DNA of 56,650 bases, the filler included, from Jimgerdemannia flammicorona (taxonomy: Eukaryota): assembly GCA_003990765.1 (NCBI GenBank). It is 3 parts of 3 records of this genome, joined end to end, with 100 filler letters (N's around TTAATTAATTAA, not from the genome) between each part and the next. Parts side by side here need not be neighbours in the genome. Positions count along the whole stretch, not along the records: positions 1 to 18,821 come from RBNJ01002104.1; 2 more parts are not named here. One strand, written 5' to 3'. A program made the position numbers and the translations under genes. The notes beneath the pieces are model-generated. The model saw nothing but the letters and a program-made list of their open reading frames with translations. It was not told the DNA's origin and did not search any database. Shown here piece by piece: positions 1 to 53,565 of this stretch; within the stretch, counting starts at the first letter, position 1; each line of letters starts with the position of its first letter.

Positions 1-199
1 AAAAAAAAAAAAAAAAAAAAAAAAAATACTTATAATACTTATAAGTTGAGGAGTATAGCATGGAATATTATTTAAAGAAGACTGGATATTGTTTAAAGAA
101 GTCTGATTTGAAGTATCACCAATACTGAAAAATACTAATAACTGATCTATTGATATTAATGTTAATATAATATATGTATAGATGTATATATATATATAT

Positions 200-656
200 T
201 GTAATAGTTGATCCAAATTAAGAATATGAATCAGAGGAATTAGATATTTGATCATAGTATCTGAACTCAATTCCCAATATAGTATAGTTATACAAATGGC
301 AGTCTGTTGTTTTGCAACTGTTAAAGTTTTCGCAACTGTTAAACTCTTCACATATATTGAAGATTTTTTCAGATACTGAAAGATTCAATACTCACAGAAA
401 GTAACTCATAACTTAACTACCCTATAGCTAGCAAAACTTGTATAAATAACCCAATATCTTAGAGTAAATAAACCTTAGATTGAAATAGTTCAAAGTAAAG
501 AAAAAGTAAAGGAACTAGTAAAGCCTATAGGTAGATATACATACTTTGAACTCACCCACTTCTATATCTCAAGGACTCTGCAGAGTTAAAGAAGGTCAAG
601 TTTTTAAGATACAGAAATCCAACATACTTCTAAGGTTAAGCATTCACTCTGTTACA
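200..656 (+). repeat. 5' LTR of family A element
   Basis: TGTAATAG...CTGTTACA; colinear with 8465-8920, differences mostly transitions. Confidence 0.95.
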
Positions 657-2837
657 ACTTGGTGCCCATTGACTAATAATTTAAGATAAATCCCTCACTT
701 TTAAGCTAAATAATGAAAAACCACTATCATCTGAATAACCATATAAATTAAACCAAGATACCCAGACAAGATAGATATGAGACCACTAGTATTTCATAGT
801 TATACTTCAGACAAGTCAATCATTACCTTCATTGATGATTTTAAACAATATGCTGTTATAAGGTATCTGATAGTAAGGCAGCAAGTAACCCTCATACCCT
901 TCAGCCTCTAAGGACCAGCAAGAGCAGTATTTACAGCTATGATTCATATAGGAAATGATGATGATGCCATGCTAGCAATACAGAAGATCTGGCTTTGAGC
1001 CATATACTATATAGATAAGATCAAGCAGATACTGAAGGATCAGCTCAATACAATATATCAAAGAATGAGTGAGGATCCAAACACATTCTATACTAGAATC
1101 TGATATTAGATAATTCTTGCAGATTATACTGCCACTATCAGAGATCAAGTAGTCAAAGCAATCTTTATAAAAGGAATCTATCTGGAGATAGTTCTGACCA
1201 TCTGCTCATCACCAATAGTCCTAGATCTGATACAGAAGGTCACCTATGTCCAGCAATACTGGATAGCCAGATATCTATAAGACTATATAATAGAGAGAGT
1301 TGCTGGAGTCAGAATTAAAGCACTCAAAGCAACCAGTATGATCTCTATTACAGTAATTAATTAAAACACACCTCAGCTAAGAGCTACTGAATAGCAGAGA
1401 AATAGCAATCCTATAGAAAAACTTGCCAGAAAGTTTGCTAAAATGATAGTCCACCTAGAAGATGTGATAAAGAAAATTAAAGGAAGAGACTACTGCTCAG
1501 TTTAGAAATTTACTGCTACCTTAGACAAGAAGAGAGATATCTACTATACTTGCAGAGAAGAGGGCCACTACTCATATAAATGTATAAGTGAAACCAAATA
1601 CAAGGTACAGCTAAGTAATGCTACTCAAAATAAGAAATAGGCCAATATCATCACCTTTGAAGAAATTGGAGAGTCTGATGAAGAGGAGTGGAAGGCTTAC
1701 TCTGTATAGACTACTAAGAAGAATGTCTGCAAAGAACCCTATAAGAGACCACCAGGGAGACTTAAGAAGAACTCTGTGGAAAAACAGATAGAGACTGCTA
1801 TAGAAAGTTAAGATGAAAAAATGAATTAAGATATGGAGCTAGAACAGGCTGTTCAAGATATCATCTGAGGAACTACTCTAGCTAGTAAAGGAGAAAAGGA
1901 GAAGAAGCTTTACAAAACCAAGACCTTCAAGTATAATATCTTCAAGGATCTCAGTCAACAAAAGGTCAATGCAACCTTTGGCCAGCTGATAGAGATATCT
2001 ACATTCAGACAGCAAATGAGATATAGACTTACTGAAATAATCAAGAAGTAAGAATAGAAGATAACTGAGGCCAATAATATTCAAGAAGACTCAGGAGAAG
2101 AAAGTGAAGACAACTGTAAAACCTCTAACTATGCAACCTATCAAATTGAAGACAGAGTCTTTGAGGCTATCATTGATACAGGAGCAGGAGGATGTCTTTT
2201 CAGCAAGAAAGCAACAGACTGCCTAGGTTGGAAAGTTGAAGAAGTAACCAAATTAGTATTTATTACAGTAGATAGTATAAGAGCTACACCTCTGAGAAAG
2301 ATCCAAGATATCTCCATCAAGTTTGGAGAAGCAACCATTCCAGTGGATGTAATTATAACTAATGTAACTAACTATGACATTCTTATTAGCAATTAATAGC
2401 TTTACAAAGCTAAGGCAATAATTGATCTAAATGTACAAAAGATGCAAATCATCTACCATAGACAGAAGATGCAAATTCCCATCAATGTCAATAAAGGAGT
2501 CCTGTCTGAGATAGAGAAAGAAAAGAGTGAACAAGAGGAAGCTTACATAGTGACAACTCAGAAAAAGAAGAAGAAAATCAGATAGATGAGTGAAGAAGAA
2601 TGGTACAAGAAGATCATAGAAGGATATATACTATAAGAAGTCTGCCTTCATAGAATCTGAATGTACTATATGGAGCATATCAATGAGTATTACTAGTATA
2701 CTAATAAAATTAAGAAGATCTACTATGAAAGAAGAGAGAAGGCTCTTAAGAAACAGACAAGAGAAGAAAAGAAATTAGAAAAAGAAGAGAATAATAAACC
2801 ACCAGCTCTCCTTGAAGACAGTGACAATGAAGAGAAA

Positions 2838-3250
2838 ATCAAGATCAAGATTCAGAAAATTTATCCTGATACAGTCTTATCAGAATATAAGTCAGAAAAT
2901 GCAACTGGAATAGATATTACCACAGTAGAGAAAACTATACTCAAACTGCAGACAACTATCCTACTTGCAACTGGTCTAGAGATAACTATTCCAAAGGACC
3001 ATATTGGGATCCTCAAGACAAGAAGCAGCCTAACTAAGAGCAAAATCACAATTAAAGGAGAAGTCATCAATTTGGATTATATTAGAGAAATACTATTTAT
3101 TTCTAGGAATGACAATCCTATAATTTCATTCTCAATCAAGAAGAAGGACTGACTGGTATAGATATTGATCTTCTCAGTTCTTCAGCCAAGAATCATAGAA
3201 GTCAAGAAGTTGGAAAAAACAGAAAGAGGAAAAAGATTCAGATCTACAGA
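2838..3250 (+). pseudogene. dUTPase domain in pol (between protease and RT)
   Basis: Translation IKIQKIYPDTVLSEYKSENATGIDI...LLATGLEITIPKDHIGILKTRSSL...GEVINLDYIREI...TERGKRFRSTE; degenerate trimeric dUTPase motifs 1-5. Confidence 0.9.
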
Positions 3251-3689
3251 AAGAGGAGTATTCATCAGTACCAAGATCATCAAGCTGTAGTATAAGAAGG
3301 AGAAAACTATAAATAAGCACAGCTATACTATTGGAAACAAATTCCCACTCAAGACAGAGCTCAAGAAAATACTGTATAAATTTAAGGATATTCTTGCTAT
3401 AGACTTCAAGAATATCAAAAGAAAGACTCTATACTACTATTATAACATAGATATGAGAGATACCAAACCAATTTACCAGAAGGTAAGATCTGTCCCATCA
3501 GCCTACCAAGAGTGGCTCAAAGAAGAAATCAAGCAGATAGAAGAAGTCAGTATCATCAAGAAGACCAATAGCCCCTAGTCTTCACCAGTTGTACTAGCTC
3601 TAAAGAAAGGAAGTAAGTCTGGAGAATTTGCTCCAAGACTATGTATTGATTACAGAAAGCTCAACATAGTCACTAAGAAGGATCACCAA

Positions 3690-5714
3690 TGTAAGCACAC
3701 AACCTCCAAGTCACCAAAATCACATGTCACCCTCTGAACAAAGCCACTGAAATCACATGCGATCTCTGAACAAATCAGGAAATCACCTGCTTGATCATGA
3801 AGCTGAGTCAAACTGAAGTCATGGAATACAAGATTTATATAAACAGAATCTTACCAATCAGGACCAAATATATATATACCGAGTACCGAGACATGTCAAA
3901 CAGAAAATCAAAACAAACAATAACCACAACTTCTGAACATACCCAAACATGACCAGTGAGATCTACAACTGCATCTGTGCTGACATTTGGAATGCTATTA
4001 TCAACTGAGCCACACCCCCTCTACCCCTCATGAATATCCATAGCCTAGCACCCCTTTACTTTGTAGAAGCCCGATAGAATGCCCTGAACATACTTAATGA
4101 GGCCCACCAGATCGGACAAATCTCAAGCTACTACCAGATTGGCTGCCTCTTGGAAGATATGGTCAAACACCACCATGATACAGACATTACTCAGATGTCT
4201 CAACACCAGAAGCTCATTGCTCACAAATATTGAGAACTCTTCTATGAGTATAGCACTGTTATTCCCCACCTCTAAGTTACCATAGCTGAAATGGTTGCTA
4301 CCCTATCCTATGACCAAATCAATAACATGATACAAGAACTCAATCACAAGTACCTTGAGTATGTTGAAACTACAGACAGAACCTTCCCACACCCCAATGA
4401 TCATATCCTGCAAATGCCCCAAGTCAGATATACTATGAAGGACATCTATGATATAATCTACTTCAACAAAGACAAAGTAGAAGACAATGATCCCTTTAAT
4501 GCTGACATGACCTCAAGCCAAGGATCTCTACCAACTCTGATCACACCACCAACCTTGCCAATGAACTTACAACAATTCATAACAGTATATAAGACTTATT
4601 GGGACAATGACCACTAGTATGAATACCAACCTGCATTCACTCCCAATTACTTCAACTACAATGAAGAGACTGGAGAACATAACCTGTACCTCCAGACAAC
4701 CCTTGAGACTGAACCAACCACTCCACTACCCAAGTACGAGCAACATAAACCACAGCCACCAGCATATTACAACCCTGTGACTCATAGTACTATAACCTAC
4801 AGAAGGTATACAGACAGTAAATCTGATGAAAGCAAAGACAATACATCTCTCCTCTGCCCACCAATACCTTATCCAGCATATGAGATGGATGATGTTATCT
4901 TGTAGGATGGAGATGAAGTTTCAATGTATTATTACCTCAGCCAACAAGAAGAAGTAATCTGCAAACCACTTTTCCTAGACAACTATTTCATCAGAGATGA
5001 TATCATTGATGGTGATATTATTGAAGACTACCCAGATAGCGTCTAAACCTATAAATAGCTTAACAGTCATAGTATAATTAGATTAGCCTTGTATGACATG
5101 ACTGTGAACTGACTCAGCAGTCAGAAAATCTCTTGACATTTCAGATCACTCTTGTACTATATGACTATATTCTGACTCAGCAAGGCACTTAGTGCTACAT
5201 CCATATCTAGCATAGTCCAGATAGCCCCTCACTAGTATAAATACCCCCTCTCCCAGACCTCAGAATCTCAGACCTAAATGATTTGAACACACTTCCCCAC
5301 AATATTCCTTTACACAACTACTCCTAGTATAGCAATATCATAAATAGCAAATAAACCTATTTAATAATCCATAAACCACTCTTAAGTAAAATCTGCTCTC
5401 CATTAGGTTCCACTCCTAACCCTGTCACGAAATTTTCTAATTGGGTATTGTCTGCAGCAATACGCCAATTCAACTAAGCTGGCCTTAGTTTCTTGAACTT
5501 TCTGAAATATGAAAAATCCTAAACATCCAGAACTAGTCCGAAAAAGGACTTTGGTTGAGACATCAACCCAATCTTGAAATCAATAAGCATAGAGGATGTA
5601 CTCTATATGAAATTGATCTTGACTATAAGAAAACAGTCTTCCAGAATATCCAGAACTTCCAGAAAACTCTTTCAGAACTATATAACAGTTACTCTAAAAA
5701 GCAACCCTCTTACA
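3690..5714 (+). mobile_element. 2,025-bp solo LTR (family B type) inserted into the RT of element A
   Basis: Termini TGTAAG...CTTACA; exact 5-bp TSD ACCAA (3685-3689, 5715-5719). The RT frame resumes on both sides. The start and the 4993-5290 block match the LTR that follows the PPT at 14846. Confidence 0.93.
3949..5046 (+). pseudogene. ~365-codon ORF of unknown function inside LTR U3, broken by several stops
   Basis: ATG 3949, the ORF-track segment 4291-4617 and TAA 5044-5046 share one frame. Internal stops are TGA/TAG/TAA, consistent with single transitions. Lies upstream of the LTR TATAAATA at ~5236. Confidence 0.8.
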
Positions 5715-8018
5715 ACCAACTACTACCCCTCATAAATGACATCCTTATAACTCTGAGAGATAAAGTATAATACTATAGCACCTTGGATCTATACTCAGAA
5801 TTTTACCAAATCAGACTCACAGAAACAGTAAGTGAGAAATCAGCCTTCATCACTCTAGATAAAATCTATATCTATCTATAAATATCATTTGAAATATGCA
5901 ATACCCCTACAAGCTTCTAGTGAATGATGAACAAAATCTTCTATTATGATATGAGAAGATAGATGATGGTTTATATAGACAATATTATCATCTACAGCAA
6001 AATAGCTGAGAAATATCTGCAGCACATCCAGCAGATGATGGAGAAGCTGAGACAGCATAGTCTTTATATTAAATCTAAGAAGTACAAGTTTGCAGAAATC
6101 GAAATTATCTATCTTGGCCATATTATCAATTGAGATAGAATATACACAGACTCTCTCAAGATACAAATAGTAGCAGTATACCCAAGACCCACTACTATTA
6201 CTGAAGTCCAAGCCTTTATAGGACTTGTCTTATATTACTACTGATTTATTAGAGGATTCTTCAATATTGCAGACCCAATCTATGAACTCAATAAGAAGGA
6301 TACTAAGTTCCAATAGACTGACAGGCAACAGAAAGTATTTAATGAACTTAAGATCAGACTGACTTAGATACCTATTCTCAGAAGATCTGATTGAACTCAA
6401 GAATTCATCCTGTAGACAGATATAAGTACCTAGAGACTAGGAGCAGTCCTAGCTCGAAAGAAAGACAAAGTAGAGTATGTCATTATATATCTAAGCTGAG
6501 AAACCCAAAGAGCTGAAAAAGAATATGAATCCTATAAGTTGGAATGTCTTGCAGTCATCTAGACAGTGGAAAAGTTTCACTACTACTTTGCCAAAAGACA
6601 CTTCACCATTTAGATAGACCACTTAGCCCTTACTTAGCTACTGACTACTGGGTAACCCAAAGGAATCTATGCCAGATTGATTATAAAGTTGCAAGTATAT
6701 GATGTAACCATTGTGTACTACCTAGGAAGAATCAATGCTAATGTAGATACTCTCTCACAGATACTCTGAAAGACTTCCAACCAGTAAATCAATTATAAAT
6801 AAGGAGCTCTACTATGGAATCAATACCTACCTAAGATAGTAAAAGATGCTCCAATATCTGAAAGAATAGATACAAACAATTATCAATAGAACATAGAAAC
6901 AATTTGAAACCAATGGAGAAATATTAAAGAAAGGGAAGCTACTAGTTATACCAGAACATAAGAAGGAGCAAGTAACGAAATCAGTATATAAACTTGACTA
7001 TTTAGGAGGAATGAATATATATGATAAAGCAAAAAGAATAATATAGTGGCCAGGAATAGAGGAAGATATCAGATGATTTGTCAAGATCTGTAATAAATGC
7101 CAGAAATAGAAATAAGATCAATAAAATCAAGCTCCAGGATTAGCATACATAGAACTAGTACTATTTGTCTATATTGTAATAGATGTAATTGGCTTTCTAC
7201 TCTTAACTTTAACTAGTAACCAATACATCATCATCATTATCATAGATCTTTTTATGAAATAGATAGAGGTAGGATCCCTTAAGGAAGCCAATATATAGTC
7301 AATTACTGATTTCTTTTATAAAGAAGTTATCTGCTAATTCAAGACCCCAACACAAGTAACTACAGACAAAGGAACAGAATTTGTGAATTAGTTCTTTGAG
7401 GTTTTCTATAAGAAGTATAAGATTCAGCACATTTAGACTACAGCATATCATCCCTAAGAAAACAGATAGGCAGAAAGGACCAATAAGACCCTCAAGAATG
7501 TTATCATCAAGATCTGCAATAACTATGAAAACTGGGATCACTATCTGTTAATAGTATTATCTACTCTTCAGGATATTCAATCATAAAGTACCCATTTCAT
7601 CTCTCAGGAAATTCTGTTTAGAGAAGAAAGTTCCTAAGAAATCCTATTGTCTAATAGAGATACTGTATGAAAATATATGGATAGAGAGATATGGAGACTA
7701 CATCAAATCAGAAAGAAGACCAAGGATTATATAACCAAGGTACAGATACTATAATAGAATAATGTAGAAAAGATTCACAAGCTCTTGAAGATTATCAAGA
7801 TAGGAGACAAAGTCCTTATATATCAGAATATGGTAGAAGCTTCATGGTCATAAAAACTGGAGCCTAAGTGAGAAGAACCTTATCTTGTGCAAGATATAAA
7901 AGAGATCACCTTTTGGCTATAAAAACTCTCAGACACAATCATCTTTACTACCATTTACTGAAACTAAAGCTAACCAACAGAGTACTGCTACAGCTCTCAA
8001 GATCATCAGTACTATACA

Positions 8019-8427
8019 ATGAGCCATAGAAAGACAATGGTGTACTACTGAGCTGCTAACTATAGAGGAATCCTTTGACAGTATACAAAGTATAATCCAG
8101 ACCCACTTATTACAAATCTCATACTTTAAGGTCTATCAGAATCAAACTGAGTTTCAAGAATACTTCAAGTTGGAACAGCTACTGAACTCACAGCCAGAGA
8201 TGGGAAAAGAAGACTAGATTAGAGAGTGCTAGCTCTCTCATACTCAGATTACAACTGCCAAATGAGTCAACAAGATATTCAAAAATGATGAGCCAGCTCT
8301 AGCCCATCTTTGCAAAGTAGTTCCAGGAGACTTTGGATATATCAAGAGATAATACTAAGAGTATATAATGACACAAATCATACAATATAAGGAGATATAG
8401 ATTATAGAGGTCTGGGAGTTTGAATAG
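8019..8427 (+). pseudogene. Extra ORF remnant between integrase and PPT of element A
   Basis: ...QEYFKLEQLLNSQPEMGKED*IREC*LSHTQITTAK*VNKIFKNDEPALAHLCKVVPGDFGYIKR...EVWEFE*; probably one frameshift near 8150. Confidence 0.65.
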
Positions 8428-8464
8428 AGTGTTTTAGAGATAAATCATCTATTCAGGAGGAAGT

Positions 8465-8920
8465 TGTGACAGTTGATCTGAATTAGGAATATGAATCAGA
8501 AGAATTAGATATTTGATCACAATATCTGAACCTAATTCTCAATATAGTATAGTTATACAAATAGCAGTTGGTTGTTTTACAACTGTTAAAGTTTTCATGA
8601 ATGTTAAATTCTTCACAGATGTTGAAAATTTTGCAGATACTAAAAGATTCAATACTTGCAGAAAGTGACTCATAACTTAGCCACTCTATAGCTAGTAAAA
8701 CTTATATAAATAACCTAATATCTTAGAGTGAATAAACCTCAGATCAAAATAGTTTAAAGCAAAGAGAAAGCAAAGAAACTAGTAAAGTCTGTAGGCAGAT
8801 ATACTTTGAACTCACTCACCCCCACATCTCAAGGACTCCACAGGATCAAAGAAGATCAAGTTTTCAAGATATAGAAATCTGATATATATACTTCTAAGAT
8901 TAAGCATCTACTATATTACA
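8465..8920 (+). repeat. 3' LTR of family A element
   Basis: TGTGACAG...TATTACA directly after the PPT; matches 200-656. Confidence 0.95.
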
Positions 8921-9034
8921 ATATATATATTCATATTAGTATTTGTAAATGTACTTATGAATATTTTTCTTTTATGTTTCTCTGTTTATATATATAAGTG
9001 AATTATATAATAAGTTTTGTTTATTCATAAGATT

Positions 9035-9163
9035 CAAATTCAGTAATTCAAATTCAGTGGTTCAAATTCAGTGATTTGAATTAATCATGTGATGAATTTA
9101 ATTAGTTTGAATCAGAAATAGTCACAATTTAAACTGGTTCAAACTGACTCATTTAGAGCACTA
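9035..9163. mobile_element. Right end of a MITE of the TAGTGCTC-TIR family
   Basis: Three TCAAATTCAGT subterminal repeats, then GACTCATTTAGAGCACTA, the reverse complement of the TIR at 20359. Confidence 0.6.
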
Positions 9164-9490: not shown

Positions 9491-11784
9491 TGGGGGTACT
9501 GCTCCAGAGGAGAATGGCCTGCCCTGGAATTTTTAAAAGAGGATGGCTGTTGTTGAGGAGGTGTTGGAGGAAATGTCACAGATGTATGATGAGATTATTA
9601 GCTCTGAAGAGTGGATGGGGGGCCAGTGGCTAGGTCTGGTGTCCTTATTGTTCAAGAATAAGAGAATAAAGGAGGATTGGAGGAACTGGCAGCCAATTAT
9701 ACTCCTGGATATGAATTATAAGCTGGTGATGAAGATCCTCATTGCCAGACTACAAGAAGTGGCTTAGCAGGTCTTAGGGAAGGAGCAGCATGAATTTGTG
9801 AAGAGCTGCTTAATCAGAGATAGCATGGCATGGGTCTATAGTATTATTGAGGGAGTAAGGGTAGCAGGAGTGAATGGCCAACTAGTCTTCTTGAATCAGA
9901 AGAAGGCTTATGATAGAGTGAGGAGAGTATGGCTCACTAAGATATTGGGGTACATTGGGATCCCTGGGAACATTTGCCATTCACTCATTAGTCTGCTGGA
10001 AAGAAGTAGTGCAGCTATCCTGACTAATAGCTATAGGGAGGCAGTTTTTCTGCTAAGGAGAGGAGTACTGCAGAGTGACCTGCTCTTACCAATTCTTTAT
10101 ACCTTTACTCTGGAGCCATTGTTGGATAGAATTTAGTACAGGGTAGGGGAACTGAATATATTGGGGGTTAATTGGAAAGTGAGAGCCTTTGCAGATGATA
10201 TAGTGGTTAGGCTGGGCTCTATGGTAGATGTAGCAGTGCTGAAAGAGATGATGGAATAGTATGAGAGGTACTCAGAGATAAAGCTTAACTAGTACAAGTG
10301 TGAGATAATGGTGCTTGGTGAAGGGGTGGTCAGGGGGGATATCATTGGAAAAATAGTTCCTGCAGGAGAGATGGTTCAGTATCTAGATATCTACTTTTCT
10401 GTCTATAGCTCCCTGCTACCCAGAGAGTAGTGGGAATGTAAGATTGTAGAATAGAGTAAGGCACTGATTGATTGGAGTGGTAGATATATGTCACTAGTAA
10501 GGAGGGTGATGGTTCTGAATGTATACTGGTTGCCAAAGCTGTGGTATATAGGATACCACCTGAACTTCCCTAGCTGGGTGGTTAAGAGACTCCTCAAGAT
10601 AGCCTGCTTCTGGGTCTGAGCTGGGTGGTGCAGTCAGATAGGGTGGGAGATACTGATGATACTGCTGGATTATGGCAGACTTGGTCTGGTGGACCTTACA
10701 AAACACCTGGTCTGTTTGAGAGTATAGTAAATGAAGTATGCTGGTGAGCTGAGGGGGGGGGAATGGGTGCCTCTGATGCAATGGCTGTAGAAGATGCAGG
10801 TGTTACTGAGGGGTAGGTCTGGGGACTTGCTTTCCTTGGTAGCTCTGGAGAGTAGCTGGAGAATGTGATATAAAGAATTCTGGTGGGGAGTGGTAGATGG
10901 AGCACATTGCATTGACATCTGTTGGAGGGAAGCTAAAGGTGAGGAGGGTTGGGAGCTGGCAATGCAGAGGTGAGACCATCTCTTGCTGGGAGATAATCTA
11001 GTAGAGGACTTTTAGTTAGAGGATAGTATGGAGTGTCTTAGGGCTTAAGGGCAGGATCTCTGGCCCAGGGCCTGGCAGAAAGCTAGTATTGGAGAAGGAT
11101 GGAACTGGGCTGGTGTGTGGTCATGGAATATAGCAGTGATGAGATGGCTCCTGCCTAAGTATTGGGTGGTGTGGTGGCAGTTTTTATAGTGAAATGTGAT
11201 ATTGAACTTCTGATTGGAGTATCTTATAGCAGGTGGTAAATTTGAGTATAAGGAGTATTATGATATAGAGCAGGAGAGAGGGGTGGTGCAGATCCCAGAA
11301 CATGGTTAGGAGAGTGCAAGAGTATGGAGATGTTCTGGAGGATAATTGGAGGGAGGCTGGGGGTTCCTATACTAGACCCAGTGCATGAGAAGAGGTGGGG
11401 AGCCCTACAGTCTAGATTGGTGGACAGGGTGGGGAATGAGTGACTGATGGTAGAGTGGGCCTTAGCAGTATGGGTCAGGCTTACTAAATATTAGCAGAGT
11501 GTCTTTGAGAAGAGTTCCAGGTTGGCAGCAGAGTTGAGGGAGGCACAGTAGGAGAGACTGGTGCTGGATCTTCTGAATGGTTGGTGGATAGATTGGAGAC
11601 CCAAGGGGGGGAGTCAGAAGGGGAGGAGTCAGAAGGGGCTAGTGAAGAGGATTGTACTAAAGAGTAGTGGGTAAGTTGTGGTATCAGAGATGGGAGTTAC
11701 TCTTGCGAGAGATGGAGGGGGGAAATCTCTCAGAGGGATTGGATAGTGGACTACAATACAGTATTCATAAAGATGTAGAGGGGG
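9491..11784 (+). mobile_element. 5'-truncated L1/Tx1-type LINE (RT plus C-terminal region)
   Basis: DWRNWQPIILLDMNYK, FLNQKKAYDRV, RGVLQSDLLLPILY, AFADDIVV; homologous to 35680-37737; no poly(A) of its own, runs directly into the 1.2-kb element. Confidence 0.92.
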
Positions 11785-12992
11785 CTCCTTTCTCTGCTAC
11801 CTTACTGATCACAAGGTTTGGTAGGTGACCTTCCAAGTCCCCTTTCCCCTATTATTACCCCCTCTACCTCAGGTTGGTTTGCTGTGCCTGCATGGGCATG
11901 GTGGGAGGAGGGCAATGGTGATGAGTTACCCCTTTATTGGTGTTGGATCGGTGTCTTCTCTACTTTTTTGTAGTTTCTGGTATCTTCAGCTGTATCTGGA
12001 GTGCATCTGTTTTGGTGTGGCACCTTCTTCCTTTTGCCATCGCCAATAAGGTGCTGTCTTGGTGTGTCTCAGGCTACATAGGAAGTCGGCTGACCTTGGG
12101 CATCAAGTGCTCAGTATAGGTTACCTGCAGGTCCTCAGTGTCTATAGTAGGGCCCTCTGGCTTTGGCAAGCTTCCTGGTGAGCGTGGTTCTGGCATAGGT
12201 GACTGTTTTTCAGGTGATATTGGGATGGGAGAGAGGGGAGATGGCCATCACAGATAGGAGGAAGGGTGATTATGGTAAACCAGTAGGGTGCCAGGCTGGG
12301 GGCAGTCATCAGGGCTGGGGTAGACAATATTTTGGTAGGGCCTTTCAATTGGCTGGTGGGGAGTGGAGTGGTGCAGGGGCCAGCATCCTGGCTGTACTCA
12401 ACTGGAACCGGGAGCTGATGTGGCAATGCGATTGAGGCCCGCAGGCTTGGGGAGTGGGACCTTTCTCATTTAGCAGTACCCGACTAGAACTGGAAGCTGA
12501 CATGGTAATGTGATTGAGGCCTGCAGGCTTGGGGAGTGGGAGTGGGGTCTCTTTAGGCCCTAGCCCATGTGTAAGTCCTTTGAGGAAGGTGCTGCATGTA
12601 AGTCCTTTATTCACCCACTTTGAATCTACTTTGCTATCTATTGGTTGGTTGGGGGGTTTTTTCTTTGCCTCAGGCTTTCTTTTGGGGTTTGGGGGACTAT
12701 TCTTTATTCAGTCCCAGCACTGCTAGATCTGACACGTAGGTGTGCTCTTGCATGTAAATGATGATCCAGTCCTGGTGAGCAGACAAGTCTAGTCTATATT
12801 GTGGGGGTCAACATAGCCAGTATTTGACAGGTATAGCTGGAGTGGTGGGACTGCTGGATAATTTAGTAACCTAGGTTAATAGGGGGATATTGTTCGGTGG
12901 GTAGTGGGGGAGGATTTTGGCCTATATAGTCTAGGTTCTCTTTCAATAAAAATCTGCAGGACTATGAGTCTATTAAAAAAAAAAAAAAGAAA
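11785..12992 (+). mobile_element. ~1.2-kb non-coding poly(A) retroposon, copy 1 (subtype I)
   Basis: Starts CTCCTTTCTCTGCTACCTTACT and ends AATAAAAATCTGCAGGACTATGAGTCTATT(A)n; homologous to four other copies in the window. Confidence 0.9.
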
Positions 12993-15943
12993 GCTCAAGT
13001 ACTCTAAGAAATCCTGAGCAGTAATGATGTTGACAAGTATCCTGGTATCATTAATATCAACTGAAAGATAATGCTATCTACTACAAGAACAGATTGTATG
13101 TTCCAAACAATCAAGATCTCTGAAGGATTATCCTATTCAAATATCATGATACCCCTACAGCCAAATATCTAGAATTTGATAAATATTATGAAGTTATTTT
13201 CTGAAACTTCTATTAACCTCACATAGCAGACCAGCTAAAGACCTACATTACTTCTTGTAATGCCTGCCAATACAACAAGTCCTCAATACTAGCAAAACCT
13301 GGCCTACTCTACCCTATCCCAGTACCATTTACTAATTGGAGACAAATCTCAATGGACTTCATTATACAACTACTCCAAACCAAGAACAGAAAGATGCAAT
13401 TATTGTCTTCATGGACTACCTTAGCAAATAAGCCCACTTTTTATCAACTACTACTACCATAATAGCACCAGACATTGCTACACTCTTATATGACAACATC
13501 TTCTGCTATCATAGTCTTCCTAAGATTATTATTAGTGATCAAGACCTGGAATTTATCAGCCATTTTTGAAAAGCCCTCCATGCATACCTTGGAATAAAAC
13601 TTGCACTATCTACAGCCTTCCACCTCAAAACTGATGGTCAAACTGAAAGAATGAACTAAACTCTGGAATAAATACTAAGAAACTATGTTTCTTACAGACA
13701 AGATGATTGGCATGAACACCTCACTACAGTTGAGTTTACCTATAACAATAGTAAGCAAGCCTCTCTTGAAATGACCCCATTCTTCACCAATACTAAACAA
13801 AATCCAAATACTCCTCTGATACTTATCCAAACCACTGATGAACTCTCCACTGTTGAAGCTGTTGAAGAATTCCTGCTCTGAATGTGCAATTTAAGCTAGA
13901 TTGCAATCAAGAATTTATCCTGAGCTTAAGAACAATAATCATAATATATCAACTAGCACTGATGAGAAGAAACTTTTGATATTGGAGAAAAGGTCCTACT
14001 AGATATTTGAGGATACTAAGTTGATAACCTCAAGCACAGACTATCTACAAAGTGAAACAGCAAATTTATTAGACCATTTGAAGTCATTGCATAAGTCTTG
14101 CCTACTTTCTACAAATTGGTACTATCAAATACTATTAAGATTTACTCAGTCTTCAATGTCCAGTGTCTCAAATGATACAATGAAAATAATGATGAGCTAT
14201 TCCCAAACTGAACCACAGAACCACCTATATCTGTCATTATTAATGACCAAGAAGAATACAAAGTTGAACAAATTCTCAACAAATGTAGCCACAAGAACCA
14301 TCCAGAGTACCTTGTCAAATGGAAAAGTTATCTGATCTATGATATAATATGGAAACCTAAGACTAATCTCCAGAATGCTACTGACTTAGTTTAGGAATAT
14401 GATTCCTTAAACAACTGAAATCCAAACACTCCTACACCTATCAGTATATATTATATATTACTCTTCAGAACATCATAATCATCATGAACAAAATCAAGAA
14501 CTCAGCAAGTCAAGACAAAATGAATACTGACCCTCTAGAAAAATAGCAAAACTAAAAGCCAGCCTATTCTCCCTGTACCACTGGTGGGAAACAAGATATT
14601 TAAAAAGATTTCTTAGAGAAAATTCTCCAGTAGTAAATAATATCAGAATCACTTCTGGTGCATAGTATTAAACATACAACCCTTTAATATACAAATTCAA
14701 CACATTAGGTAACTGTACTATAAGTATACCACTTTCTGAAAAAATTAGACATTACTGGACTTTTGATCATCCAAATAGTGTAACAATACTAGACCCAAAC
14801 TAGAAGGCCTCTGATAAGGATGTCAAAAGCTAAGAAGGGGAGAGTTATAAGCATACAACTCCTAAGCCACCAAAATCATATGTCATCCTCAGAACTAATT
14901 TGAAAACCACATGTGAAGACTACAAAACAAGTTACTAAAGAAGATTACCCAGTTACACAAAATATACCAGTAAGCATGAGAACCTACTGTCAAGATACAA
15001 GAATACCAGAAGAAGTACTACAACTATAAGACCAATTCTAAATCTCTACAACTAGTTTTGGTATACTGTACTATTATAAAAGAAAACTGAAGTACCAAAC
15101 TCAAACTGAGATGAGAAGAACCCTATCTCATCTATCAGAGATTCATAAACTATACTTATCAACTCAGGGCCAAGATATATTATAACTATATAAGACTCAT
15201 CACTTAGTAGAAGCAAAATACATTTGAATAACCCCATTTACTCTATCTATATTACCTTCATTAGAGAATAACAGATACTTCATCTAAACTCAAGAAAGCT
15301 GACATTGTCAAAACCAATCTCAAGTCTATCCATGTGATAGATATTACTACTAGAAATTATCTCAGATTATAGAAAATATCATTTCTAAGAGGTTTGAATC
15401 CCCAGTATGACATTGAGAGTCCTTGCCCTAGACAAGAATGGCCAGTCCTTGCAAATGTGCCAGCAGTCCAAAAAAAAAAGAGAACTAAGATCTGTTATCC
15501 TTATACAACTGCTACTATCAAGGACAGTCTTAATTTTGCAAGAGATAGAGGTAACAATACCTTAAAACTAATGATATTAAAAGTCAGAAACCGCTCAGAC
15601 TTTACCAGAGATGATATCATTAATAGTAATATCATTAAAGACTACCCAGACAGTATCTAAATCTATAAATAGCCTAACAGTCATTAGTATAGTTAGATTA
15701 GCCTCATGTAATATAACTGTGAACTGACTTAGCAGCCAGATAATCTCTTGACATATCAGATCATACTTGTACTATGTAACTATATTCTGACTCAGTAAGG
15801 TACTAAGTACTATATCTATATTCAGTATAGTCTAGATAGCCCCTCACTAGTATAAATACCCCCTCCCTCAAATCTCAGAATCTCAGACTTAAAGACTTGA
15901 ACAGACTTGAATACAACTTCTGAGCACTTCTTTACAATATCTC
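12993..15943 (+). mobile_element. 3' part of a chromodomain Ty3/Gypsy element (family B): integrase, chromodomain, PPT, 3' LTR
   Basis: YITSCNACQYNK, ISMDFI, IISDQD, AFHLKTDGQTER; chromodomain EEYKVEQILNK...EYLVKWKSY at ~14250-14380; PPT AAGAAGGGGAGAG 14832-14844; LTR from 14846, cut by a LINE at 15944. Confidence 0.92.
14846..15943 (+). repeat. 3' LTR of element B (truncated) with an ORF remnant in U3
   Basis: First ~60 bp match 3690-3750 and 15606-15905 match 4993-5290; the middle is unrelated; TATAAATA at 15851. Confidence 0.85.
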
Positions 15944-18821
15944 TTTTTTTTTTTTTTTTTTTTTTTTATAGTTACTTGGACTCTGCCATTTATTACCAGT
16001 CTATTAATAAGTTTACAGTATCTCCTCTTACTACTCAATCCCTATAGGGGAGCCTCTCTCTGTATCATCATAAATAAAGACTATCTTCTCACCTGCTACT
16101 CCTATCCTCCCTCCACTCTGCCTACAGATCTTCTCCACTAAGTGATGCCTTCAATCACCCTATAACCCCAACCAAGCCACCAGCCTGTCAAGGTATCTTC
16201 CATAAGACTATGCTAGTGCAACAACTGGTCCCCCAAGCCAAGCCTCCTCCCATCTTTAAAAATAAATAGCCAGTGACTGGCCAGCCTCACCCAAATTGCC
16301 AAAACCCAGCCTAAGGTAAGCCACTCCTTTCTCACCCCCCCCCCACCAGTCTATCCCTCAAATCCTCCCACTGACCCCATGTGCCATTTCCCCTATATTA
16401 CTCCCAAACAATCCCCAATAGCCCACTAAAAGTCACTAAGTACCTCACACTCTCCTAGCCAATATTCAGGTATCTGTATATATCCCTCTTCCTGCCCTAC
16501 ATTGTAACACTCCTCACAGTCAAAGTAACCCCCTTTGATAAGGTAACCCAAGTAGAAGTTAAGCATTACATTCCTCCTCAGTATGCACCACCAGACCACC
16601 CAGTACTTTGATAGTATCCACTTCCTCACCTCTGCACTCCAGGCCCATATACTATATCAGTTCCACTCTTCTCTGATACCCACTCTCTGCTATCTGCTAG
16701 ATCACAGATTCTGGCCTTGTCTCCTTTGGTAATCTATCTCATTACTAATGTCAAACTCAATTTAGAAAATGCCTCTCAGCAACACTTGGTCCCATCTCCA
16801 CATCACCAGGTCCCAAGCCACCTCTCCTTCATTATCCTGTCAATAAATTCCAATGCAGTGCACCCCCTCTACTACTCTCTACCAGAAGCCTTTGTATCAC
16901 AATTGTGCAGTATTCTGAAGCCCAACTAATGATAAGAGATCACCTGTCAAGTCTCTTAGTGAGGATCTTATCTCCCAGACTTTCTGCAATAGGGAGACCC
17001 AACTGCCCCCTCTCAATTCTACCACTCTCTTTAACCACTATACTCTCAAGTAGTGTAGTCTCTTCAGAAAGTCAACCAGCCTAAGCCCTCCTCTTGCCAC
17101 CAGTAAGAATAAGACCTTCCAACTTATCTGACTCCTTCTTCCAGCCCAGATCCACCCCTTGGCCAGCTTCATCAATCACTTCACTACCCAGGCTGGGAAG
17201 TCCATATGATAAGCCAGATACCACAACTTTGGCAGCCAATAGATGTTCAAAATCAAGACATGCCCTGCTAGAGATAAGTAGCAACCCCCCCCAGCTCCAC
17301 AGGGCCTCCCCCCAGATTCCAACCCTCTGCTCCCACCAAAGTCTAGATAGTACTGACCCATATACTGACAAATAAATATCCAAGTACTACACTATCTTAC
17401 CAGTAGGGATAATTGTTCCAATAACATCCCCTCCCACCAGACCATTACCCAACACCATTGTTTCACACTTATGCTAATTGAGTTTAGCCCCAGAGTTCTC
17501 CTCATACCACTCCACCATCTCCTTGAGCTCCTTAATATCTGCAATAGACCCTAGGCCAACCATTATGTTATCTGCAAAGGCCCCAACTTTTCACCCAATT
17601 CCAAAAACAGAGAGCCCTACTATCTTCTGCCTAATTCTATCTATTAGGGACTCCAGGGAAAGAATATATAGAATGGGAGATAGTGGGTTCCCCTGGGGCA
17701 CACCCTTATCTAGGAGAAATGATACCCCTCTATGTTCATTATATATGAGTGCAGCCCTACTCTCTTCCAGTAGACTGATTATTGCTGATCTGAACTGATG
17801 GGGTACTCCAGTCCTATCCAATACTTTTACCAGCCAGACTTACTGCATCTGGTCATAAGCCTTCTTCTGGTCTAAGAAGACCAGTTTCCCATCCAGTCCA
17901 CAAGCTCATACCCCTTCAATAACTCTATATACCTAGGCTGTGCTATCTCTAATGAGCTGGCCTCCTACAAAGCCTCTCTGCTCAATATCCAAGACTTGCT
18001 GGGCCACCTTCTGTAGCCTCATGACCACCACCTTAGTTACCAACTTTCTGTTCATGTCTAGTAGCATAATTAGCTGCCAGTTCTTCTAGTCCTCTCTCCT
18101 TCCTTTGTTCTTGTAAAGCAATATCACTAGCTCCAGATCCTGCACCCCCACCCATCTCTCTGTCTGTAATATAAAGTTATACAATATTATCATCTTACTC
18201 AGTACTCCTGGAACTCCCACCATCTTCTTCCAGAAGTCCCAGAGCAGACCATCCTCTCCAGGTACCATGCCCAGGGTTGTCACAGTAAGAACCTGGTGGA
18301 TCTCTTCCTCTTGTACTGACAACACTAAGTCACCCAGCCCATCTACTCATGGAGAGTGCCAATCTTCCAATGCCCAGTCAATGGCAGCAGCATCTGCCCC
18401 ACCCTCCTCCTCACTCCACAATCCACTCCATCACTCTTTTAATGAACCAAGAATGTCTTGTATACTATATACTAGTATACCATCAGAGTCAAGCACCCCT
18501 TCCCACCTTTACTGTACCCTTCTCACCTGAAGGACCCTTATGAGATACTTAGAGGGCCTCTCCCCTTCCTCCAAACCCTGTCAATGAAGCCATGCTGCCA
18601 AGCTCTATACCTTTGCCTCCTCCTCATCCTACAGTACCTGTTGTAATTCTCCAACCTCCATTTTCACCCTCATTAATCTCCAATCCTCTCTCCCCTCTAC
18701 CATCACTAGCTCTACCCAATTCTCCAAGAGTCTAGTCAGTCTAACAGAAGCCCATCTCACCTATCACCTTCTCTGCTTCCCAGCCTCCCTACTAGCCTCA
18801 CTTCAGTAGCTCCCTTTTTTT
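15944..18821 (-). mobile_element. L1/Tx1-type LINE, 3' half with poly(A) tail, running to the contig end
   Basis: Poly(T) 15944-15967; minus-strand VPGEDGLLWDFWKK, KGVPQGNPLSPILY, FDCEECYNVG...PEYWLGEC. Confidence 0.93.
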
Positions 18822-18921
18822 NNNNNNNNNNNNNNNNNNNNNNNNNNNNNNNNNNNNNNNNNNNNTTAATTAATTAANNNNNNNNNNNNNNNNNNNNNNN
18901 NNNNNNNNNNNNNNNNNNNNN
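18822..18921. other. Artificial contig-joining spacer
   Basis: 44 N + TTAATTAATTAA (stops in all six frames) + 44 N. Confidence 0.98.
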
Positions 18922-20195
18922 TTTTTTATAATAGAATTAAGTCTTTACAAATTTTAATTAAAGGGAATCTAGACTATATAGGTCAAACCCCTCTCCCACC
19001 CCCCTCTCTCTAAGTACTATTCTTTTATTAATCTAGGCTACTAAATTATTCAGCAGTCCTACTATTCTAGCTATGTATGATAAATATATATACTATCTCT
19101 CACTATATAGATCAGACTTATTTACTCACTGAGACTAGATAATCATACTAATAATGCAAGAGTATACCTATATATCAAATCTAGCTACACTGAGACTGAG
19201 TAATAAATAGTCTTCTGAATTGGAAATAAAATTCTAAAAAAGGAGAAAACCCCCCAATCAATTAACAAAAAGCAGAGAGAATTCAAAATAGGTGAATAAA
19301 GAACTAAAATACAAAACTCTCTCCAAAGGACTAATATATAGGCTAAGGCCTGAAAAGACTCCAATTCTACTCTCTGAGTCTATAGGCCATAATTTTATTA
19401 CTATATCAGCTTCTAGTTCCAGTCAGGTACTATTTAATAAAAAAGATCTCAATCTCTAAGCCTATAGGTCTCAATCATATTACGATATCAGCTTCTAGTT
19501 CCAGTCAGGTACTATTTAATAAAAAAGATCTCAATCTCTAAGCCTATAGGTCTCAATCATATTACTATATCAGCTCTTAGTTCTAGTTAGATATAGCTAA
19601 GATACTAGTCTCTATACTACTCTACCTTCAGTCAGCCAATTAGAAGACTTTATCAAGATAGTATCTATAATTCTCTAATAGCTATCACTAGTCTAGTATC
19701 TGACTAGTCTACTATAATCACTCTTCCACCAATCTGTAATAGCCATTGTCTCTCTTATCTCAATACTACCTCAAAAACAGTCACCTATATCAGAACTATA
19801 CTTATCAGGAAGCTTGCCAAAGCTCAGAAGGTCCTACCACAAATACTGACAATCTCTAGATAACTATACCAATACTTAAAACTCAAGATTAGCTGACTCT
19901 CTATATAGCCTAAGAGATACTGAGATAATATATAGTTGATGATAGTAAAATAAAGAAGGCATTACACTATAATAAATATATCCTAGATATAGTCAGAAGT
20001 ATCAAAAACTATAAAAAAGTGAGAAAGTACTAATTTAATATTATTAAAGAAATAACTCACTACCATTGTCTTCCTTCCTCTACCCTTTAATAGATACAGC
20101 AAACTATACTAGGGTAGAGGGGATAAGGTTAGAGAAAAAGATATTCAGACAATTATCTGCTGATATCTTGTAACTAGTATAGTAGTAGAGAAAGA
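18922..20195 (-). mobile_element. ~1.2-kb non-coding retroposon, copy 2 (subtype I, three internal repeat units)
   Basis: Reverse complement colinear with 11785-12992; ~82-bp unit present three times at ~19370-19595. Confidence 0.88.
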
Positions 20196-20981: not shown

Positions 20982-22250
20982 GTCTAGGGTAATGAAGGCT
21001 GACTTTTCACTGGCTTCCTTGGTAAGGCTGATTTGATTAAATACTAAGTATAAATCTAAGATAGTATAGTATTATACTTTATCTCCTAGTGTTACCAGGA
21101 TGTTACTGATGAGGAGCAGTGGTTGATAATTCTTTTTAGTAACTTTGTTGAGTTTTCTATAGTCTGTACAGAGTCTTGGGGCAAATTCTTCTAGCTTGTT
21201 TCCTTTCTTTGGGACTAGTATAATTGGTATAAATCTAAAAACTAATAACTTTTTTGATAATACCAGCTTCTTTTATCTAATTTATTTTTTTTCTGAGCCA
21301 TTCATAATATGCTGGTGGAATTAGTCTTGCCCTTTGGTAGATTGGCTCAGTATCTCCTATATCTATAACATAATAGTAGTGTGGTGTCTTTTATTTAATA
21401 TTCTTAAAATCAGTAGTAAGGATATCTCCAAATTTATATAGTAGCTTCTTGAGTTTCTTTTTAAATAGAAATTCATTTCTAAAAGTATAGCTATATATGC
21501 TTATCTGTAATTTCCTTCTTTTTGTAGTCTAATTTAGTAATATTAGTACTGTTAAAAACTCGTTTTTCTATAGATCCAAATCCTCTCCTTTCTCTTCTAT
21601 TTTCTAGCTTCTTGATATTCCAAATCTTAGATTGCAGTATCTGAAAGATCAGTATTTATATGAGTTAGTCTTTCTTTTGTGACTATAAATAGGATTGAAA
21701 AGTTATAGTTTCTACCATTAAGCAAGATTTCTCTAATATAATCAGAATTAATAACTCCTCTTTCAATCAAAATTTCACTCTTTGCTAGACTGCTGCTTGT
21801 CTCAAATATTCCATTATAATTCTTGAAAATAGTTATTACTAGACTAGTTATAAGTAGGATTATTGTCTGATGTTTAAGAACTGTCTTCTCAATTGTTATA
21901 ATATCTATTTCAGCCACATTTTCTGACTTATATTCTGGCAGAACTGCATTAGAGTAAATCCTCTAAATATTGATCTTGATTTCTTCTTCATCATCACTAT
22001 TCTCTAGAAAAGCTGATGGTTCATCTAGTTAGTCTTCTATTTCTTACCAATTCTGTCTTCTTTTCTTCTTTTTATAATGAATCTTATGGATCTTAGCAAT
22101 ATATTGATAGCACTTATCTATATGCGTCATATGGTATATTTGAATTTTATGAGGACATACTTCTTATGGGACATATTCTTCATCAATCTTCTTTCATCAG
22201 TCTTCTTTCCTGATCTATCTGACCCTGAGTAGTTACCATATAGGCTTCTT

Positions 22251-42580: not shown

Positions 42581-43778
42581 CTCCTTTCTCTACTATCTTA
42601 TCAGTCACAATAGTTTAATAGGTAATCTTCTAAGTTTACTTCCACAACTAATACTCTCTCTACCTTGGATTGGTTTTCTGTACCTATTGTAGGACAGTGG
42701 AAAAGAGGCAATAGTGATGAGTTGCCTCTTTATCAGTATCAGATTAGTGTCTTTTTCACTTTTTCACAGTTTCTAGTGCCTTTGGCTGCATCTGGGGTAT
42801 ACTCATTTTAGTATAGTACCTTCTTCCTTTTGCTGTCACCAACAAGATATTGTCTTAGTATATTATAAGTTATATAGGGAGTTGGCTGATCTTGGGTATC
42901 AAGTGCCTAATATAGGTTATCTATAGATTCTTGATATCTGTGATGGGGTCCTCTGACTTTGGCAAGCTTTTTGATGAGCATAGTTCTGACATAAGTGACT
43001 GTTTCTTGAGTGATATCAAGATAAAAGAGAAGATGGCTATTACAGATAGATGGAAGAGCAATAACAGTAAACCAGTAGGATACCAGGCTGGGAGTAGTTA
43101 TTGGGCTGGGGTGGGTACTGCTTTGGTGGGGACTTTTGATTAGTATAGGGTAGTTAGATAGTAGGTATCACTCTCAGCTTCTTTTGACAATTCATAGAGT
43201 TGGGTCTCAGTCATTAAGAGGGGCTGGAGGGCCCAAGACTACCTATATCAGATATCTTGGCTGCACTTAACTAGAACTGAGAGCTGACATGGTAATATAA
43301 TTGAGGCTTACAGACTTGAGTAGTAGGATATTAGGGATCTCCTCTCATCTCATGTGTAAGTTCTCTACTTATCTTACTTGAGAGAACCAGGTCCTATCTA
43401 TCATTTTGTACTTTGAGGAGGGTTTTTTCTTTATATATCATTTCTACTTGAGGTAGCAGAGGCTATTCTATTCAGCTTAGACATAGTTTTGTATATATAT
43501 TGGAGTTTCAGATATATGCTTTTAGTTATTAGTATATGGCTGAGTTCTCTCTGATAGTAGGGAGAGTATAGTGTACAGAATGAGGTACAGGCCACTATAG
43601 GCCCTACTATATCTGATATGGTCAAGCTACTGGATGATAGCTAGCTTAGGTTTAATGGGAGAACAGTACTCAGTGAGTAGTAAGAGAGAGTTTTGGCCTA
43701 TATAGTCTAGGTTCCCTTCCAATAAAAATCTGCAAGACTCTGAGTTTATAAAATAAAAATAAAAAATAAAAAATAAAA
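42581..43778 (+). mobile_element. ~1.2-kb non-coding retroposon, copy 3 (subtype II)
   Basis: Same 5' and 3' ends; A-rich tail; degenerate TSD ATA(T/C)ATTTATAGA; interrupts the RT of element E. Confidence 0.88.
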
Positions 43779-44120
43779 TACATTTATAGAGTACTATTCT
43801 TCTTTTTGATAAATAGGAATAGTGAGCTATAAGAGGATTTTCTTAATTGAATAGCTCCTTATATAAGTAGTTTTTCTAGTTCTTTCTTAATTACTTCAAT
43901 TTTAAGAGATAATATATAATATATATTTTTTGGATAGTATAGCTCCTAGAGTCAGTTCAATTTCATAATCAACTTCTTATATACATAGATAATAGACCAG
44001 ATAGCTTATCTAAGAAGATATCCTTAAATTCTTCAAGTAATAACTCGATACTTTTATTAATTAATAGCTTCTTGTCTTACTTCTTAGAGCAGACTATTGC
44101 AATAAAGGTATGCACTATAC

Positions 44121-52700: not shown

Positions 52701-53565
52701 ATATTATTGAGCTTGGGTTTGAGTTCATTGGCTTTATTGACTACACCTTTGATCTTATTTGGTACTGTATCTATAGAACCTATAGAATGTTCTTTTGTCA
52801 TCATTGCTACTATTTTCTTAGCATATTTCCTCATTCATGAGGCTCATTATAATATAGGCATAGTCCAAAAGACTGCTGCTCTTATATATAGCTGTAATGA
52901 CAATATTATATATATCCAGAAGTTCTCTTATAAGTACTATAACCTTATCTTTATTACTAATATAATTCATAGATATACTGAGAGAATTTACTTGATTTAT
53001 CAGATCATTAATATGACTGACATATTTATAGATATTCTTCTTAGACTTTATTTGAAGATTGAATAGCTGAGATTTTAGGTGGAATCTATTCAATATAGAT
53101 ACTTACATATAATAATTACATAGAGCTTCCCATATCTTATTAATTATATTCATATATATTTGTAGCTTTATATACTCTGCCAAGCCTGTATTTATCAAGA
53201 AGATTCATTATATGGAATATACAAATAGTATAGTCTTTCTTATCAAAGATCAGAACAGATCTCTTGGCTATATTTATACTTATAATAAGGACTGCTCTCA
53301 TTACTCAAATATTTGCAATTGGCATATCTATATTGTTAGGTTATTTATTACTTGATATTTCTAGTGTATATAATTATATAGTATTTATTTATAAAGTATA
53401 TATACTATAGCTACTTAATACTAGTGGAGCTTATAATCTTTATTAGAAAGAGGGATATTTTTATTAAGCTTACATAGGATGTATATTTTATACATTACTG
53501 ATGGATGATATAAGATTGATAAAATCACTAATTATATATTAATATATTAAGTTACCATCTCAATA
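49790..53565 (-). mobile_element. Decayed Ty1/Copia element (5' LTR, gag, PR, IN, RT), 3' end missing
   Basis: PBS remnant AGATTATAAGCTC (compare Copia GGTTATGGGCCC) at 53427-53439; UBN2-like gag; LMDSRAI protease; RYFLTFIDNY integrase; LEIHQIDIKIVFLNDDID RT. Confidence 0.9.

Follow-up and report, generated by a model that had tools for sequence, protein, structure and literature searches.

Can the long terminal repeat (LTR) of a retrotransposon carry a protein-coding gene of its own? The question is raised by a unit of 2 kb at positions 3690-5714 of a 56,650-nt stretch of Jimgerdemannia flammicorona DNA (assembly GCA_003990765.1; this whole stretch, three parts joined end to end, is referred to as the window), which a preliminary description had presented as an LTR with a gene inside its unique 3' region (U3). 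Retrotransposon LTRs are usually taken as non-coding control regions and are masked in annotation, and solo LTRs are counted as dead remnants. Among retroviruses, the sag gene of mouse mammary tumour virus (MMTV) is a superantigen open reading frame (ORF) in U3 of a betaretroviral LTR, and nef of the human and simian immunodeficiency viruses (HIV/SIV) and bel/tas of foamy viruses overlap U3. As argued below, we put at roughly 0.6 the probability that the unit is a solo LTR of a chromodomain Ty3/Gypsy family, one LTR subfamily of which carries a genuine accessory gene of ~365 codons that is dead in this copy.

The unit at 3690-5714 and its insertion site

The unit, its flanks and the related LTR at 14846 in the same window comprise the following features.

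3690-5714, plus strand: solo LTR, TG...CA, 2025 bp, of a chromovirus-type Ty3/Gypsy family, as judged from its ends, target-site duplication (TSD) and polypurine tract (PPT) context
3685-3689, no strand: TSD ACCAA, left copy, read directly
5715-5719, no strand: TSD ACCAA, right copy, read directly
3690-3762, plus strand: 5' terminal block common to the unit and the LTR at 14846, matching 14846-14916
4985-5325, plus strand: promoter-proximal block common to both LTRs, into which the ORF extends with its final 19 codons and its stop
14832-14844, plus strand: PPT AAGAAGGGGAGAG of element B, adjoining the start of its 3' LTR
14846-15933, plus strand: 3' LTR of element B, with the family ends and promoter block, an unrelated U3 core of ~680 nt and no ORF body

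The unit starts with TGTAAG at 3690 and ends with TTACA at 5714. It is nested in the reverse transcriptase (RT) of element A, an older Ty3/Gypsy element whose RT halves form both flanks. Contigs from four public runs (X1, X3, X5 and X7) were aligned to positions 3500-5900 at a likeness of at least 80%; none of these runs is recorded as RNA, X5 being RNA by guess only, and the share of words in common was at most 0.11 for any run. Two contigs of the host element A family skip the unit. In the one from X7, which has 105 letters on its shorter side, 3683 is joined to 5722 with exactly 8 letters between them, as expected for a single ACCAA copy, and this contig thus represents the empty site. The X1 contig is weaker, with 31 letters on its shorter side and 35 other letters between 3663 and 5729.

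No internal direct repeats were found in the unit: blastn against the window gave nothing but the self-match and two blocks within the LTR at 14846, and in purine/pyrimidine coding there were only matches of 20-48 nt, a length expected by chance. Lacking an internal direct repeat, the unit is not a short-LTR non-autonomous element. Moreover, in run X3 the PPT sequence of element B, two transitions apart, lies directly before position 3690 in 4 contigs, and a primer-binding-site (PBS)-like, TGG-starting sequence, TTGGTAGCAGCAG..., continues past 5716 in 2 contigs; this motif has no occurrence in the window. The LTR family is highly repeated, 2787 contigs having been aligned in X1. That the unit, inserted whole, is a single LTR from a Ty3/Gypsy family with a chromodomain is therefore well supported, and on this point, as on the TG...CA ends with an exact 5-bp TSD, the preliminary description stands. 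The element would have inserted into the RT of the older, dUTPase-bearing Gypsy element, and LTR-LTR recombination would then have left the solo LTR.

The family assignment leans on element B, the 3' part of a chromovirus downstream of the unit, which contains an integrase H2C2 domain, a Tf2-type SH3 domain (SH3_Tf2-1) and a chromodomain (Chromo). The 5' block is 82% identical over 51 nt by blastn, and 93% identical over 73 nt in purine/pyrimidine coding. Positions 4985-5294 and 15599-15908 share 85.5% nucleotide identity and, over 311 nt, 97.7% purine/pyrimidine identity, with the alignment extending to ~5325. The unit and the LTR at 14846 are thus closely related, with hardly any differences other than transitions. 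The earlier claim that the ends of the unit match this post-PPT LTR holds for the 5' block and the TATA block; the 3' ends are not comparable owing to a poly-T/LINE (long interspersed nuclear element) insertion at ~15934, and the remaining 3' part of the element B LTR was found nowhere in the window.

As a separate observation, single low-depth contigs in X3 join unit position 5338, or 4488, to a new LTR start (TGTAAG...), probably because members of the family have inserted into LTRs of their own kind.

The reading frame, its relatives and its product

The gene and its two relatives can be summarized as follows.

3949-5046, plus strand: decayed accessory ORF, ATG to TAA, of 365 codons before the terminal stop, interrupted by internal stops at codons 20, 43, 95, 109, 223 and 319
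P0003 (JGI, 1180-nt contig): 128 aa, covering ORF codons 1-128 with the same Met start; 104/128 identical and 114/128 positive, gapless
P0002 (ENA, 998-nt contig): 247 aa, covering ORF codons 115-365 with the common stop; 150/251 identical and 201/251 positive

The frame has 6 internal stops (7 with the terminal one), versus 18 and 38 in the other plus frames over the same span and 10, 27 and 29 in the minus frames; the totals of 7, 18 and 38 include a stop in the final codon where there is one. Mononucleotide shuffles gave 19.8 ± 4.2 stops, and only 1 of 5000 had six or fewer. A homologue search of ~5.8 billion proteins, run in three length classes, yielded relatives among 1 of 308, 1 of 29 and 0 of 793 candidates, namely P0002 and P0003 only. 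Both are open throughout, and the window is 81% identical to P0003 and 60% to P0002, the latter alignment containing two gaps of 2 residues each. These homologues exclude a chance open frame, and we conclude from them that the frame at 3949-5046 is a decayed genuine protein-coding gene. An exhaustive profile search of 1.84 billion representatives, with a profile that covered the C-terminal 247 positions, returned P0002 alone. Homologue DNA was not detected by ORF alignment in two metagenome scans and one viral-contig scan, and two DNA-pattern scans of viral sequences and one of prokaryote genomes likewise gave no match. The window itself contains no second ORF-type LTR copy by blastn, tblastn or purine/pyrimidine search.

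All six internal stops align with Arg (codons 20, 95 and 109) or Trp (codons 43, 223 and 319) in the intact homologues. Five are single transitions, whereas two are needed for the TAA at codon 109, where the homologue has Arg; the earlier statement that the stops are explainable as single transitions thus applies to five of them. Over codons 1-128 the window differs from P0003 at 24 positions, 19 of which fit C>T/G>A changes in the window copy (18 single, 1 double); the others comprise 1 other transition and 4 differences needing a transversion. Other copies of the family point the same way: at stop site 4076 X1 has G in 916 of 920 depth units, which restores TGG, and at stop site 4273 all aligned contigs of X3, X5 and X7 have C (40 of the 495 variable sites were shown, and these were the only stop sites among them). 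Relative to the window, the X1 copies show 80 A>G, 116 T>C, 62 C>T and 41 G>A differences and 21 transversions. Such transition decay fits a process on repeats like repeat-induced point mutation (RIP), or methyl-cytosine deamination, and C>T/G>A hypermutation of Arg and Trp codons would account for the six stops. The window copy of the gene is dead. What the preliminary description had singled out, one frame from ATG 3949 to TAA 5046 upstream of the TATA box, is borne out by the six stops where about 20 are expected, and by the intact homologues.

In the blocks shared between the LTRs the decay is likewise almost purely by transitions, the main losses being Arg (CGN) and Trp (TGG) codons. There is also a 19-codon upstream frame from an ATG at 3893 (3893-3952), whose TGA overlaps the ATG of the ORF (ATGA); in a decayed copy this overlap may be due to chance. 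Furthermore, of the unit only 4564-4772, a core of the ORF that measures 209 nt and has 37 other letters, is present in a 9601-nt high-depth contig of X5 (record 21), close to where the contig starts and with unrelated sequence on either side; a divergent relative of the gene, in a different setting, may be represented here.

As a substitute for a dN/dS test (the ratio of nonsynonymous to synonymous changes), we simulated neutral, transition-biased change, starting from the sense codons of the window copy. At ~60% residue identity the simulated fraction of positives was on average ~0.74, compared to 0.80 observed, and the probability of finding no stop in 249 codons was ~0.02. This is suggestive, not decisive, of purifying selection on the ORF.

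The N-terminal ~140 residues of the product look helical and the ~225-residue remainder is acidic, rich in Tyr and Pro and probably disordered. This composition agrees with the two-part protein of the preliminary description, a helical-looking N-terminal half and an acidic low-complexity C-terminal half, the structure models being of low confidence. AlphaFold2 (AF2) with a 3-sequence alignment of the whole protein gave a mean predicted local distance difference test (pLDDT) score of 32, and with P0003 alone (the N-terminal 128 residues) a pLDDT of 51 and a predicted template modelling (pTM) score of 0.46; at this low confidence the models place helices over residues 3-141 and little structure beyond. 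The C-terminal 247 residues have an isoelectric point (pI) of 4.05 and contain 9% Tyr, 10% Pro and 46 acidic versus 10 basic residues. No Pfam family matched at E values up to 10, the best E in a PDB sequence search was 0.2, and the ESM Atlas gave no usable match for either the N- or the C-terminal part. A known relative, for which the preliminary description had suggested a Foldseek search, did not emerge: a low-confidence model had 0 matches in the PDB at E up to 0.001, the best hits, at E 0.9, being generic helical bundles. None of the motifs PPxY, LPxY, P[ST]AP, YPx(1-3)L/I, LxxLL, basic runs and CCHC is conserved between the homologues, and hence no late-domain, nuclear localization signal (NLS) or zinc-knuckle motif; a signal or membrane segment was not noticed, no predictor having been used.

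Placement of the gene and the competing explanations

Whether the gene lies in U3 depends on where transcription of the element starts, for which the following features are relevant.

5236-5243, plus strand: presumed core promoter, a TATA box TATAAATA lying in 26 nt that do not differ between the two LTRs
5350-5355, plus strand: AATAAA, candidate poly(A) signal, read directly; R/U5 border placed near 5375
3836-3843, plus strand: TATA-like motif ~110 nt upstream of the ORF start; a second AT run lies at 3868-3879

The TATA box begins 190 nt downstream of the end of the ORF. In X5 the depth at 5282 climbs from ~10 to ~4280 (~400-fold), which, X5 being only guessed to be RNA, is a weak hint of a transcription start; among the DNA-type runs X1 and X3 fall at this position and X7 rises ~3-fold. 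The ORF itself is covered at low depth in X5. On this basis U3 would span 3690-~5280, R ~5280-5375 and U5 ~5375-5714, and given the conserved TATA box and the depth hint in X5, the ORF most probably lies wholly in U3. Reverse transcription would then copy the gene into both LTRs; what is shown is that a genuine coding sequence sits within an LTR and is multiplied together with it.

The explanation we favour, a solo LTR of a chromodomain Ty3/Gypsy family with an accessory gene in one LTR subfamily, places the gene downstream of the 5' terminal block and upstream of the conserved TATA-box promoter. The protein would act in trans for the element, and ORF-less LTR subfamilies, such as that of the LTR at 14846, would do without it. 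Expression could take either of two routes: the ORF could have its own promoter in 5'-proximal U3 and use the LTR poly(A) signal downstream, or it could be read from a subgenomic RNA extending into the 3' LTR. The sag gene of MMTV is expressed by the second route, from a subgenomic RNA reading the 3' LTR. For the first route the motif at 3836-3843 is a possible promoter; it may be a product of C>T decay. With an own promoter and the LTR poly(A) signal, every LTR would be a gene cassette. A bolder version holds that each ORF-type LTR, solo copies included, is such a cassette of upstream promoter, ORF and poly(A) signal, and that its acidic product is a trans regulator that drives the element promoter or counters silencing and is exploited by ORF-less subfamilies; this we consider distinctly unlikely. 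Our preferred guess as to function, that an acidic, aromatic-rich tail on a helical domain makes the protein a trans-acting activator or adaptor, is itself tentative and rather improbable. Action against silencing or on chromatin, the role suggested in the preliminary description, is speculation.

A number of observations weigh against the favoured explanation. The ORF body (~3763-4984) is absent from the LTR at 14846, in which tblastn with the ORF found the last 19 residues only, and that LTR contains no alternative gene, there being 13 stops in 270 codons in the tail-sharing frame and 20 and 15 in the others. Because the body is missing from so close a relative, the gene is dispensable in cis for transposition. 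Neither did scans of public collections reveal a full-length element with the ORF in both LTRs; the X3 contigs with PPT or PBS sequences are too short to separate ORF-type from ORF-less LTRs, which share their termini, and the PBS-like TTGGTAGCAGCAG rests on 2 contigs, the window containing no tRNA gene that could match it. The borders of U3, R and U5 are themselves inferred. As to the gene, P0002 and P0003 are its sole homologues among the ~5.8 billion proteins, and both are partial, singleton clusters from contigs of ~1 kb. The start Met of P0002 aligns with codon 115, so this copy may be without the N-terminal part or have lost it. Protein databases take in open frames only, which introduces an ascertainment bias, and decay of the window copy itself contributes to the 40% divergence from P0002; when this contribution is discounted, by simulating at identities of 0.72-0.81, the probability of no stop becomes 0.07-0.19. 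Finally, no family, fold or motif points to a specific function in the Pfam, PDB, Foldseek, ESM Atlas and motif scans.

Given the absence of the body from the LTR at 14846, the gene marks one LTR subfamily. The break at ~4985-4992 recurs in a contig of another organism (X5 record 22), and ORF-type and ORF-less forms are therefore discrete LTR subfamilies. The gene is thus a feature of the subfamily of the unit and not of the family as a whole.

The alternative that survives best is that the ORF is a passenger, captured or newly arisen and useless to the element, and that P0002 and P0003 are open since their copies are young. This we regard as unlikely, without dismissing it. It accommodates the LTR at 14846, which has family ends and promoter intact without the body, as well as the small number of homologues, the want of a family, fold or conserved short motif, the low-complexity tail that is modelled as disordered, and the fact that freedom from stops is only weakly improbable once the decay of the window is discounted. 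It is less easily reconciled with two lineages, ~60% identical, that are both open and differ by in-frame gaps only. Most of their changes are conservative, the 201 of 251 positives exceeding the expected ~0.74, the stop and C-terminal tail are common to both lineages, and P0003 has the Met start of the window. Nor is there a host-gene relative among the ~5.8 billion proteins or, for the C-terminal 247 positions, the 1.84 billion representatives.

It could also be that the ORF is real but situated in R or the 5' leader, with transcripts starting at the TATA-like motifs at 3836-3879, so that the genomic RNA, or a short RNA terminating in the LTR, would have the ORF as its first cistron. The TATA-like runs 70-110 nt before the ATG and the AATAAA downstream at 5350 are in keeping with such a start. 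However, no part of the two LTR types, the ORF-less one included, is better conserved than the TATA block at 5236, AT-rich motifs easily arise in a C>T-decayed copy, and the jump in X5 depth at 5282, with nothing comparable in the DNA-type runs, gives a weak hint in the same direction. An R region of ~1.5 kb would be unusual. We consider this arrangement highly improbable. That the unit is instead a complete non-autonomous element with short LTRs, like a terminal-repeat retrotransposon in miniature (TRIM) or a large retrotransposon derivative (LARD), or a chance TG...CA stretch with a chance frame, is scarcely credible: the preliminary description had named the short-LTR element as a caveat and 2 kb is long for a fungal-type LTR, but internal direct repeats are lacking in both nucleotide and purine/pyrimidine coding, a PPT lies directly before the first base in element B and other copies, a PBS-like motif follows the last bases, and a chance frame would not have P0002 and P0003 as homologues.

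A genuine coding frame upstream of a conserved TATA box within an LTR, as had been proposed, is thus supported, and intact versions of this frame exist in P0002 and P0003.

Parallels, implications and the surrounding window

With the MMTV sag type of gene the unit shares a sizeable frame in the LTR upstream of its presumed promoter, duplicated with the LTR and retained in solo LTRs. It differs in that there is no sequence or fold relation (Pfam 0 at E up to 10), and in that the carrier is a chromodomain Ty3/Gypsy element in a genome rich in transposable elements (TEs) and AT, versus a vertebrate retrovirus. The open-access literature gave us no example of a retrotransposon LTR with a protein gene in it; the papers returned were essentially on MMTV and foamy viruses. 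Additional ORFs (aORFs) of plant LTR retrotransposons lie, according to the accessible part of a review, most often between pol and the 3' LTR, with Grande, RIRE2, Retand and env-like ORFs as examples (Vicient & Casacuberta 2020, PMC7264820). Like the gene described here, these are extra genes beyond gag-pol that are kept in many copies, whereas the ORF of the unit lies after the PPT, inside a TSD-bounded LTR and not in the internal region. An additional gene, brtn, is also present in Boty/BcGypsy1 of Botrytis (10.1101/2021.04.13.439636), an LTR location not being stated in the accessible text. A structural parallel is offered by crapaud, a chromovirus of Podospora, whose LTR subfamilies, in the part of the report that was available, share the 3' half and the termini and have unrelated U3 cores before the TATA box (PMC10787394). 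The unit and the LTR at 14846 differ in this same modular way. In crapaud, by the same partial source, the variable U3 measures less than 200 bp and coding capacity is not mentioned, whereas here the core is 0.7-1.25 kb and one of the cores is a gene.

A gene in U3 is doubled per replication cycle and may persist as thousands of solo LTRs, and LTR recombination can exchange it between subfamilies as a module. If the gene described here is functional, the evolution of accessory genes in U3 is not limited to vertebrate retroviruses, solo LTRs are a possible reservoir of expressed protein, and ORF-less and ORF-bearing subfamilies relate to each other much as non-autonomous and autonomous elements do. 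If, in addition, each LTR were a self-contained cassette, it would correspond, in retrotransposons, to the U3 genes sag, nef and tas of retroviruses. In a practical sense, decayed frames in transition-hypermutated repeats can be validated with rare intact copies in metagenome protein sets.

The window as a whole is AT-rich with locally strong GC skew, and forms a nest of decayed retroelements. Six-frame translations in which stops were replaced by X were scanned against Pfam, and only transposon domains, and no host gene, were found; tRNA and Rfam scans detected no tRNA genes or Rfam families in the window. Element A, which hosts the unit, has a dUTPase upstream of it and RVT_1, RNase H and integrase domains downstream. 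Its LTR pair lies at ~199-900 and 8464-9150, and the two LTRs are 79-87% identical over matched blocks (199-626 versus 8464-8886). The element spans 199-9150, with the dUTPase at ~2883-3234, between protease and RT, and a further dUTPase fragment is present on the minus strand at 21630-21962.

The LTR of element B is broken at a poly-T run, 15934-15960, by a C-rich stretch, and an RT fragment is found on the minus strand at 17594-17839; this break presumably marks the poly(A) end of a LINE-like element. On the plus strand, at 9669-10313 and onward, lies a G-rich relative with RVT_1. The two regions concerned are 15934-19000 and 9669-13000. Similar to the 3' part of the G-rich LINE-like stretch (11844-12988) is a unit of ~1540 bp that occurs in two tandem copies at 42640-45308, these being 65-83% identical to one another or to the reference copy over matched blocks. 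A Ty1/Copia remnant occupies 50055-53102 on the minus strand, with RVT_2, a Pol beta-barrel domain and a copia-type gag, and an 82-bp unit is repeated in three tandem copies at 19371-19616, which are 67-90% identical to the first.

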